The notes below the pieces were generated by a model. That model worked only from the letters and a program-made list of their open reading frames with translations. It searched no databases and was not told the origin of the DNA. From a virus (Duplodnaviria > Heunggongvirae > Uroviricota > Caudoviricetes), in the IMG/VR virus record IMGVR_UViG_2896595138_000001, positions 1 through 30,379 of that record: a stretch of DNA of 30,379 nucleotides; one strand, written 5' to 3'. The translations under genes and the position numbers were made by a program. Of the stretch, positions 4,522-5,506 are shown piece by piece. Each line of letters begins with the position of its first letter. The first letter of the stretch is position 1.

Positions 4522-4704
4522 ATGCGAAAGTTCAAAATTATTATTGAAACGGGAATAGCCGGTGGAGATTTCGAGGATGAATTCGAAGTGGATGATGATG
4601 CGACGCCTGATGAAATACATGACGAAGCAAAAGATATTTTCTTTAACTACTGCAATTACTCATATCACGAAATAAAAGACGAAGAGGAAGAACAAAATGG
4701 CTGA
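4522..4704 (+). CDS. Hypothetical highly acidic small protein (60 aa)
   Basis: ORF MRKFKIIIETG...DEEEEQNG, about one third D/E; sits immediately after the IS10-like remnant. Confidence 0.4.
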   Translation: MRKFKIIIETGIAGGDFEDEFEVDDDATPDEIHDEAKDIFFNYCNYSYHEIKDEEEEQNG

Positions 4705-4873
4705 TTTTGGTTCAACTAAATACAACGTCAGTTTTGAAGAATGGCATGAACTGTTAATGGACTATGCAGAGTTACGTGGTGGCAGTGCTGCTGATGCTGA
4801 AGCATGGCGTGATGATTATGAAGCAGGAAAAACTCCGGTCGAAGCATATTGTGATGAGTGGGGCGATGAATGA
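4697..4873 (+). CDS. Hypothetical acidic small protein (58 aa)
   Basis: GAGGAAG RBS 9 nt upstream of ATG 4697; overlaps the upstream stop and the downstream start (ATGA at 4870-4873), implying translational coupling. Confidence 0.45.
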   Translation: MADFGSTKYNVSFEEWHELLMDYAELRGGSAADAEAWRDDYEAGKTPVEAYCDEWGDE

Positions 4874-5387
4874 GCGAGATTAATTATCAGGAAGGGCATG
4901 AAACGGCGGGGCAAGCAAAAACAGTGGCATGGCGATATCGCTACGTGAAAAAAAAGGCGTTACGGACTTTCAGGGGAAGTGGTGGTCTGGTGACTGGAAA
5001 TATGTACCGAAAAAAGAGGATTGTAACGACAGGCCGAACTATGAAATTCAGGCCTTATTCACTGCCCCGCCAGTCCAGGTGACATCAGAAGGACTGGTTA
5101 AAGCCGTGCGCTTTTATGAACAGGTAAAGCGTGAGAATCCACCAGTCGAAACAGGAGCATGGAAAGACGCTGTTGACTGGGTACTCAAAGAGGCTTGCTG
5201 TGCTGTCATTCTGGGTAAAGCCGACAACCTACTAGCATCCAGTAATCAGGTTAGCGAATTAACAATGTGGGTTAAACGACTGGTCAGTCAACTGAAAAAA
5301 GCTAAGCCTGACTGCAAATTACCGGAGAAGGCGATGGATTACCTGAAGCGAAATGGACTGATAAGCGTGGAGGATGTTTTACGATGA
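4870..5387 (+). CDS. Hypothetical phage protein (~172 aa) split by a frame change at an A8 tract
   Basis: ORFs 4870..5082 and 4929..5387 join into one reading frame if the A8 run at 4948-4955 is A9; either a sequencing indel or slippage. Confidence 0.4.
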
Positions 5388-5506
5388 CCTGGCCTGAAGC
5401 ATTCACCACGGTAGGAATTGCAATGGCGGTGGCGCTGGTTGTGTATTCGATTTGCCGCTGGGGTAAGGTAAACCAGCCCGAACGGGCTGGTAATTTAAAG
5501 AGGTAA
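5384..5506 (+). CDS. Hypothetical small membrane protein (40 aa)
   Basis: GGAGGA RBS 9 nt upstream; ATG overlaps the upstream stop (ATGA); one predicted transmembrane helix (VGIAMAVALVVYSI). Confidence 0.4.
   Translation: MTWPEAFTTVGIAMAVALVVYSICRWGKVNQPERAGNLKR

Follow-up and report, generated by a model that had tools for sequence, protein, structure and literature searches.

A block of four small, overlapping open reading frames (ORFs), two of them strongly acidic, lies at positions 4522-5506 of the viral record IMGVR_UViG_2896595138_000001 (Caudoviricetes), whose 30,379 nucleotides (nt) form the window analysed here. The block belongs to a heavily degraded lambdoid prophage interrupted by insertion sequences (ISs).

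Organization of the ORF1-ORF4 block

All four ORFs are encoded on the plus strand. ORF1 (4522-4704) is intact and codes for an acidic protein of 60 amino acids (aa), assigned to Pfam DUF7167 and phrog_1997. Its content of Asp and Glu (D+E) is 20 of 60 residues (33%), its net charge is -15 and its isoelectric point (pI) is 4.05. ORF2 (4697-4873), also intact, codes for an acidic protein of 58 aa that belongs to phrog_519 and lacks a Pfam family, with 16 acidic residues (28%), a net charge of -12 and the same pI of 4.05. The window contains 102 ORFs with 50 aa or more, their mean D+E being 8%, and ORF1 is the most acidic of them. They are followed by the ORF3 pseudogene (4870-5387), which is split between frame a (4870-5082, 70 aa) and frame b (4929-5387, 152 aa), and by ORF4 (5384-5506), which codes for a hydrophobic peptide of 40 aa with one membrane helix. 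The ATG of ORF2 sits 8 nt inside ORF1 in the overlap ATGGCTGA, and ATGA overlaps join ORF2 to ORF3 and ORF3 to ORF4. These stop/start overlaps are also kept in relatives.

An earlier note, made from the letters of this DNA alone, had described two overlapping ORFs of 60 and 58 aa, about one third and one quarter Asp/Glu, linked to their followers by ATGA or near overlaps and lying beside an IS junction. Our ORF listing and comparisons bear out these statements, the junction being that of an IS600 inserted in ISSfl1, the 3' part of which ends near 4505. The 40-aa membrane peptide of that note also exists at 5384-5506, though its conserved form has 27 aa. The ORF of about 172 aa containing a run of eight A (A8) did not hold as a single gene, in that the frame opened by the ATG at 4870 closes at 5082 and the rest is read in another frame. 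The statement that none of these ORFs matched a nameable family was incorrect for ORF1 (DUF7167, E = 8e-15).

ORF1 is a member of DUF7167

ORF1 matched the Pfam model DUF7167 (PF23768) over model positions 1-60 of 60 with 55.1 bits against a gathering cut-off of 24.4, and it matched phrog_1997 with E = 9e-31. The identical sequence was found on more than 1000 contigs, and every copy obtained in a scan of viral contigs with a close DUF7167 alignment was 100% identical. When 1.8 billion representatives were searched exhaustively with HMMER, there were 99 DUF7167 matches, about 60 of which are stand-alone proteins of 50-60 aa. In the 64 short representatives, the mean D+E was 28% and the mean net charge was -11, with none above -4. 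The alignment of 59 distant representatives yielded the motif MRKxxVxIET..G...fEVeDDATxEEIeeeA.d.fFN.cNYgw.E, which is present in ORF1. As a stand-alone protein of the usual length (about 50-60 aa) that carries the fEV-DDAT-EEI motif, ORF1 is a typical member, with no differences from a family that itself has no assigned function.

The range of DUF7167 recovered by tblastn includes lambdoid prophages, Guernseyvirinae-like Klebsiella phages, Enterococcus Herelleviridae, and Pseudomonas and rV5-like phages, with homologues at 37-70% identity in the Klebsiella, Enterococcus, Pseudomonas and rV5-like phages. The family was also found on 15 plasmid records, conjugative plasmids among them. In these phages and prophages, the gene is part of a string of small early genes whose stops and starts overlap. 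Between E. coli copies of ORF1, the ratio of nonsynonymous to synonymous polymorphism (pN/pS) was about 0.1. The AlphaFold2 (AF2) model of ORF1, computed like that of ORF2 from a shallow multiple sequence alignment of 18 close sequences, had a predicted local distance difference test (pLDDT) score of 81. It folds residues 2-9 and 16-23 into a beta hairpin and residues 29-44 into a helix, and it ends in an acidic tail.

The DUF7167 genes of both Klebsiella and Enterococcus phages overlap a gene annotated as 'exonuclease' (loci L007, 3001-4525, and L008, 2471-3171). A link between DUF7167 and an exonuclease was considered and rejected, since the two neighbours are unrelated, one being DUF2800/PD-(D/E)XK and the second DUF3850/ASCH, and the other contexts contain no nuclease. 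Separately, the record of Klebsiella phage 37P2 calls its 55-aa DUF7167 protein a 'PD-(D/E)XK phosphodiesterase', an apparent annotation error.

ORF2 belongs to phrog_519 and is shared with conjugative plasmids

ORF2 matched phrog_519 with E = 4.5e-23 over profile positions 76-137 of the 143-column model. No Pfam family matched it, and phrog_519 has no characterised member. As for ORF1, the identical sequence was present on more than 1000 contigs. Homologues of ORF2 were found in 202 phage records, mostly of Ackermannviridae (for example, Cba120 orf183), and in 561 plasmids, of which 516 are conjugative. Cba120 orf183, Menlow gp075 and the proteins of IncI2 and IncT plasmids share the core F..W...L...A...GGSAADAeAW..DYe.GKTP..A..deWG, and the relatives of ORF2 are acidic, with net charges of -8 to -10. 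The AF2 model of ORF2 consists of three helices (pLDDT 81).

IncI2 plasmids with mcr-1 carry a copy of ORF2 that is 88% identical at the aa level (pP111, NZ_KY120365.1; locus L017, 2603-2987). There, the order is a gene for a CaiF/GrlA-type regulator, a DUF1187 gene, the ORF2 homologue, joined to the DUF1187 gene by the overlap ATGGCTGA, and SPFH/NfeD genes. Rts1 (IncT) and a Klebsiella plasmid typed IncU/MOBH carry remoter copies, each within an array of small genes. Acidity is a property of both families and extends beyond the copies in the window. Both families consist of stand-alone proteins and are also confined to mobile elements, which are phages for both as well as conjugative plasmids, the latter for ORF1 being among its 15 plasmid records.

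ORF3 is a frameshifted pseudogene

In the window, a run of eight A occupies 4948-4955 at the place where E. coli THO-006 and RM8082 read GTG-AAAAAA-GGC, a +2 shift relative to A6. When two A's are removed, a protein of 171 aa is restored that is about 91% identical to the annotated intact homologue, itself 171 aa long (locus L001, 6370-6885). The product of 172 aa is obtained only by reading across the shift. The exact 152-aa fragment of frame b was recovered from 54 contigs, all of Shigella dysenteriae, which makes this species the likely origin of the window, and about 326 complete E. coli genomes match positions 4900-5010 at an identity of at least 99% without gaps. A sequencing error as the source of A8 was rejected on the strength of the truncated product on the 54 S. 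dysenteriae contigs and of A8 in many E. coli genomes. In E. coli SK1144, the gene is annotated as 'frameshifted; internal stop'; its frame b contains an extra TAG and its 3' end is divergent.

The run is present in 69 of 80 loci on viral contigs, as A6 in 34, A8 in 27 and A7 in 8. The A8 and A7 alleles differ from each other by 1-5 nt and from the A6 alleles by 16-22 nt, forming one clade. They therefore represent one decaying inherited lineage and not repeated switching. ORF3 in the window is a frameshifted pseudogene and not a coding gene.

The intact form of ORF3 matched phrog_660 (E = 1e-72), and no Pfam model, including PF13935, matched it at E <= 1. ORF3 has four modules, and many of its 1467 relatives share just part of this set, in recombined form with PF13935 (Ead/Ea22) or DUF551 domains. 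In BLASTP, only the first 16-23 residues of ORF3 aligned to lambda Ea22 and ArgO145 gp13 (E = 0.1-0.2). The resemblance to lambda Ea22 consists of this N-terminus (MSEINYQ..E.AGQA in ORF3 and VSEINSQALREAAEQA in Ea22) and of the place in the gene trio described below, whereas neither the coiled-coil nor the C-terminal domain of Ea22 has a similar counterpart in ORF3, which is frameshifted here. Judged by its modules, ORF3 appears to be a mosaic protein of the usual kind, with a relation to the Ead/Ea22 family.

ORF4 is an extended form of a conserved 27-aa peptide

The conserved core of ORF4 is a peptide of 27 aa (5384-5464), MTWPEAFTTVGIAMAVALVVYSICRWG, which forms a single membrane helix and is preceded by a GGAGGA Shine-Dalgarno sequence about 10 nt upstream. 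The C-terminal extension of 13 aa is specific to the window, where the usual stop codon has been lost. The extension runs through a hairpin (CCAGCCC-GAAC-GGGCTGG, 5473-5490), read from the sequence, between ORF4 and the following DUF1640-like gene. In the terminator scan this hairpin received no score, as it lacks a T run. The 27-aa peptide follows the ORF3 end-module (...GLISVEDVLR) in all five loci checked, including ArgO145, at positions such as L001 6882, L002 5880, L003 6016 and L004 5709, and it is unannotated in the RefSeq and GenBank records of these loci.

Gene order in intact prophages

In Qin/Rac-like prophages of E. coli, the gene order starts with cI/Cro-like regulators, YdaT, O/P-type replication genes, DUF977 and a gene for a 118-aa zinc-ribbon protein, and it continues with ORF1, ORF2, ORF3, hokD, DUF968, RusA and Q. 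ORF2 directly follows ORF1 in 78 of the 80 loci on the E. coli-type viral contigs that were fetched, and the third gene, whose place and signature are constant in these 78, always begins with MSE[IV][ND]YQ, a signature shared with the N-terminus of lambda Ea22. In the Shiga toxin (Stx) phage ArgO145, ORF1 and ORF2 are followed by a different Ead/Ea22-like gene, and they lie among early accessory genes by another Ea22-like gene. This position was compared with that of lambda orf61 and orf73, which lie upstream of ea22 (PMC8614690). As candidates, the ORFs were also considered as equivalents of the lambda exo-xis genes. This was rejected, because BLASTP found no similarity to orf60a/61/63, ea8.5, orf55 or the orf73 region, with the exception of the Ea22 N-terminal signature in ORF3.

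One record under another host name resembles this region. The DNA of PP818812.1 ('Actinobacillus phage vB_Apl-pPE4', locus L004) is about 91% identical to the early region of E. coli Qin/Rac-like prophages over ydaT, the replication genes and hok, and the deposited host A. pleuropneumoniae looks doubtful.

Searches for characterised relatives of the block

Neither ORF1-ORF4 nor the DUF1640-like neighbour matched the PADLOC defence models, and no NCBIfam model matched the ORFs of the block. Searches of PDB sequences by phmmer and hmmsearch with ORF1-ORF3 and both family profiles gave only noise from low-complexity or designed-repeat sequences, and in the test for DNA mimics Foldseek against BFVD returned only uncharacterised phage proteins. 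Taken together, these searches revealed no sequence, profile or fold link to a characterised protein or a DNA mimic. The earlier note had proposed that an anti-defence role would be refuted by homology to replication or regulatory proteins or by a lack of conservation in related prophages. Sequence and profile searches detected no such homology, and the ORFs are strongly conserved in related prophages.

The IS junction and the surrounding prophage

Directly upstream of the block, an IS600 element (IS3 family, plus strand, about 2702-3970) with orfA (2771-3073) and orfB (3109-3927) is inserted in ISSfl1. This stretch is 99.5% identical to elements annotated as 'IS3-like element IS600 family transposase'. 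It is followed by the 3' remnant of ISSfl1 (IS4 family, plus strand, 3970-4505), of which 535 base pairs (bp) are left and which is 99.6% identical to 'IS4-like element ISSfl1 family transposase' up to about 4505. Homology to prophages begins at about 4501, so that the junction lies 17-21 nt 5' of the ORF1 ATG. A hairpin just 5' of ORF1 (GCCC-GAAA-GGGC, 4501-4512, plus strand), identified from the sequence and the alignment with THO-006 and RM8082, has a 6-bp stem in relatives (CCGCCC/GGGCGG), and its left arm is clipped by the junction in the window. Because the ISSfl1 remnant ends about 20 nt before ORF1, the early promoter and all upstream genes are gone, and no convincing promoter remains. 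Further upstream of the IS elements lies a truncated lambda-type integrase gene.

Downstream, a DUF1640-like gene (5495-5782, minus strand, phrog_17872) is convergent with ORF4 and codes for a protein of 95 aa that resembles DUF1640/CCDC90 at its N-terminus and has a hydrophobic C-terminal tail. It stands in the place of the hokD-side sequence of the E. coli relatives, and the recombination joint is at the stop codon of ORF4. Beyond it are an ORF6N anti-repressor-like gene and, directly 3' of this, four prophage tRNA genes (Met-CAT, Arg-TCT, Thr-TGT and Gly-TCC, 6872-7182). A gene for a potassium transporter of the TrkH/TrkG type is split into two ORFs (9399-10214 and 10307-10888) and is probably another pseudogene of the prophage remnant. 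Lysozyme and terminase genes and additional IS elements are also located downstream. An IS110-family transposase gene (13546-14742, minus strand) and a DDE_Tnp_1 transposase gene (16131-17144) lie among phage morphogenesis genes, and a second copy of IS600 occupies 24308-25464.

Discussion

Our results suggest that the block is likely to be what remains of an array of early accessory genes, namely its downstream end, and that the Qin/Rac-type lambdoid prophage which carries it is undergoing decay in Shigella dysenteriae. In intact relatives, ORF1, ORF2 and an Ead/Ea22-related mosaic gene are a fixed trio of the early operon, placed after the replication genes. At the Shigella locus, ISSfl1, later struck by IS600, has displaced everything upstream to within about 20 nt of ORF1, promoter included. 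ORF3 has inherited a +2 slippage and is a pseudogene, and ORF4, in its usual form a 27-aa peptide, has lost its stop. The genes at this locus are probably silent relics. With the promoter lost and ORF3 a pseudogene, any function therefore belongs to the family and not demonstrably to this locus. The content is already catalogued (DUF7167, phrog_519 and phrog_660) and is ordinary for the remnant of a lambdoid prophage. Nevertheless, on the evidence of their pN/pS of about 0.1 and of their distant homologues, ORF1 and ORF2 are real genes under selective constraint.

When carried by a functional phage or plasmid, ORF1 and ORF2 might be made soon after entry and act as stoichiometric binders that block the basic, nucleic-acid-binding surfaces of host proteins. 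We put this forward tentatively. By analogy with the logic of other small acidic phage inhibitors, the target could be a housekeeping enzyme, for example RNA polymerase, or a nuclease of a defence system. It is a more speculative step, and one to which we give a low probability, that DUF7167 and phrog_519 are two unrecognised families of acidic inhibitors, nucleic-acid mimics deployed at entry against host defence or against a DNA or RNA enzyme. Under that mimic reading, the target of ORF2 would be one relevant to phages and to conjugative plasmids alike, including the IncI2 plasmids with mcr-1, a suggestion that is likewise improbable on present evidence.

Several observations weigh against the picture of an early inhibitor pair left silent in Shigella. 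An obligate pairing of ORF1 and ORF2 was rejected, because the two are apart in most other phage groups and so need not act together. The ORF2 homologue of Ackermannviridae has its place close to the capsid gene, in a region that is not obviously early. The structural models of both proteins come from the shallow alignments mentioned above. Read-through from the IS elements could still express the Shigella copy. Finally, literature searches under the names and accessions of the families found no functional study. They yielded one machine-learning prediction, made with PaCRISPR/AcRanker, in which phrog_519 members of Kuttervirus were predicted to be anti-CRISPR proteins (bioRxiv 10.1101/2022.06.14.493971), and this is a prediction only.

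An anti-defence role of the block is possible, with support that is circumstantial. The specific form that the earlier note had suggested, in which ORF1 and/or ORF2 are DNA mimics of the Ocr/ArdA type that occupy the DNA-binding site of a restriction or defence nuclease, seems to us unlikely. The extreme negative charge in both families (-15 in ORF1 and -12 in ORF2) agrees with such a role, and so does a range limited to mobile elements, with ORF2 on 516 conjugative plasmids and in temperate and virulent phages. No rival functional annotation competes with it. The anti-CRISPR prediction for phrog_519 points in the same direction, but machine-learning predictors favour any small acidic protein. 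Ocr and ArdA resemble ORF1 and ORF2 in negative charge, in carriage by mobile elements and in expected expression soon after entry. However, they are two to three times longer and form elongated dimers that copy the phosphates of B-form DNA, and no relation to ORF1 or ORF2 was detected. At 58-60 aa, the two proteins are far below the size of the known elongated mimics unless they are oligomeric. In addition, no sequence or profile match to solved structures was found, and recognised anti-restriction genes do not adjoin the plasmid copies in the three contexts inspected.

A second explanation is that ORF1 and ORF2 are modulators of development or host physiology, comparable to the lambda exo-xis proteins (Orf60a/61/63/73, Ea22 and Orf55). 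Instead of countering a defence system, they would tune host transcription or the choice between lysogeny and lysis, perhaps through RNA polymerase, the enzyme to which T7 Gp2 binds. We regard it as doubtful. Positional support comes from ArgO145, where the pair lies immediately upstream of an Ea22-like gene, in the manner of lambda orf61 and orf73, and the N-terminal signature of Ea22 is invariably present in the trio's third gene. Effects of the exo-xis genes on lysogenisation and induction have been reported (PMC7093339, PMC3824215). Furthermore, the predicted beta-beta-alpha order of ORF1 is the topology reported for lambda Orf55, T7 Gp2 and phi29 p56 (PMC8614690). T7 Gp2, phi29 p56 and the modelled lambda Orf55 are also similar to ORF1 in being early, strongly acidic proteins of about 55-65 aa with the same order of secondary structure (PMC8614690). 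The target of Gp2 is RNA polymerase and that of p56, a DNA mimic, is uracil-DNA glycosylase. However, hhalign gave a probability below 1% for T7 Gp2 and for Orf55, so that homology of ORF1 to either protein was rejected and the likeness is a loose topological analogy only. No sequence similarity to lambda Orf60a/61/63, Ea8.5 or Orf55 was detected, and a role in lysogeny leaves the conjugative plasmids and virulent phages unexplained.

For ORF3, the A8 run could in principle be a site of recoding or phase variation, where a -1 ribosomal frameshift or a transcriptional slip of one extra A yields a low and regulated amount of a 172-aa protein. The codons AAA AAA AAG of frame a do form a heptamer of the dnaX type, A_AAA_AAG (4950-4956), and a simulated -1 slip there enters frame b and gives 172 aa, as does an A9 transcript. 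The length of the run also differs among prophages (A6, A7 and A8). Yet every intact allele of ORF3 has an in-frame A6, so the two-frame arrangement is not conserved among relatives, and the single clade formed by the A8 and A7 alleles points to inheritance. The E. coli carriers of A8 have decayed further, in that frame b has acquired a TAG stop and the 3' end has diverged. No Shine-Dalgarno-like stimulator was present in the 25 nt upstream of the heptamer, and the 74 nt downstream of it fold no better than shuffled sequences (z = -0.64). Recoding at this site is therefore highly improbable. Lastly, the view that the small ORFs are chance open frames encoding nothing, to which their shortness and their RefSeq labels (hypothetical or DUF only, with ORF4 unannotated) might lend some colour, is effectively refuted for ORF1 and ORF2 by deep conservation at the protein level across unrelated phage groups, a pN/pS of about 0.1, confident compact AF2 models, and conserved start/stop overlaps and Shine-Dalgarno sequences.

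As the likely remnant of an early accessory-gene array, the block has little significance as it stands, comprising hypothetical prophage proteins in a decayed copy within an IS-rich Shigella genome. Nevertheless, both families consist of small proteins that are acidic throughout, and neither occurs outside mobile elements, which makes ORF1 and ORF2 reasonable and cheap choices when screening for anti-defence or host-takeover functions. Of the two, ORF2 holds more appeal, being present on conjugative plasmids, its carriers numbering in the hundreds and including the IncI2 plasmids that spread mcr-1. If a target were demonstrated, one or two new families of inhibitors would be established, and there would be an explanation for the trio of the E. 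coli lambdoid prophages and for the pair that they share with Stx phages.

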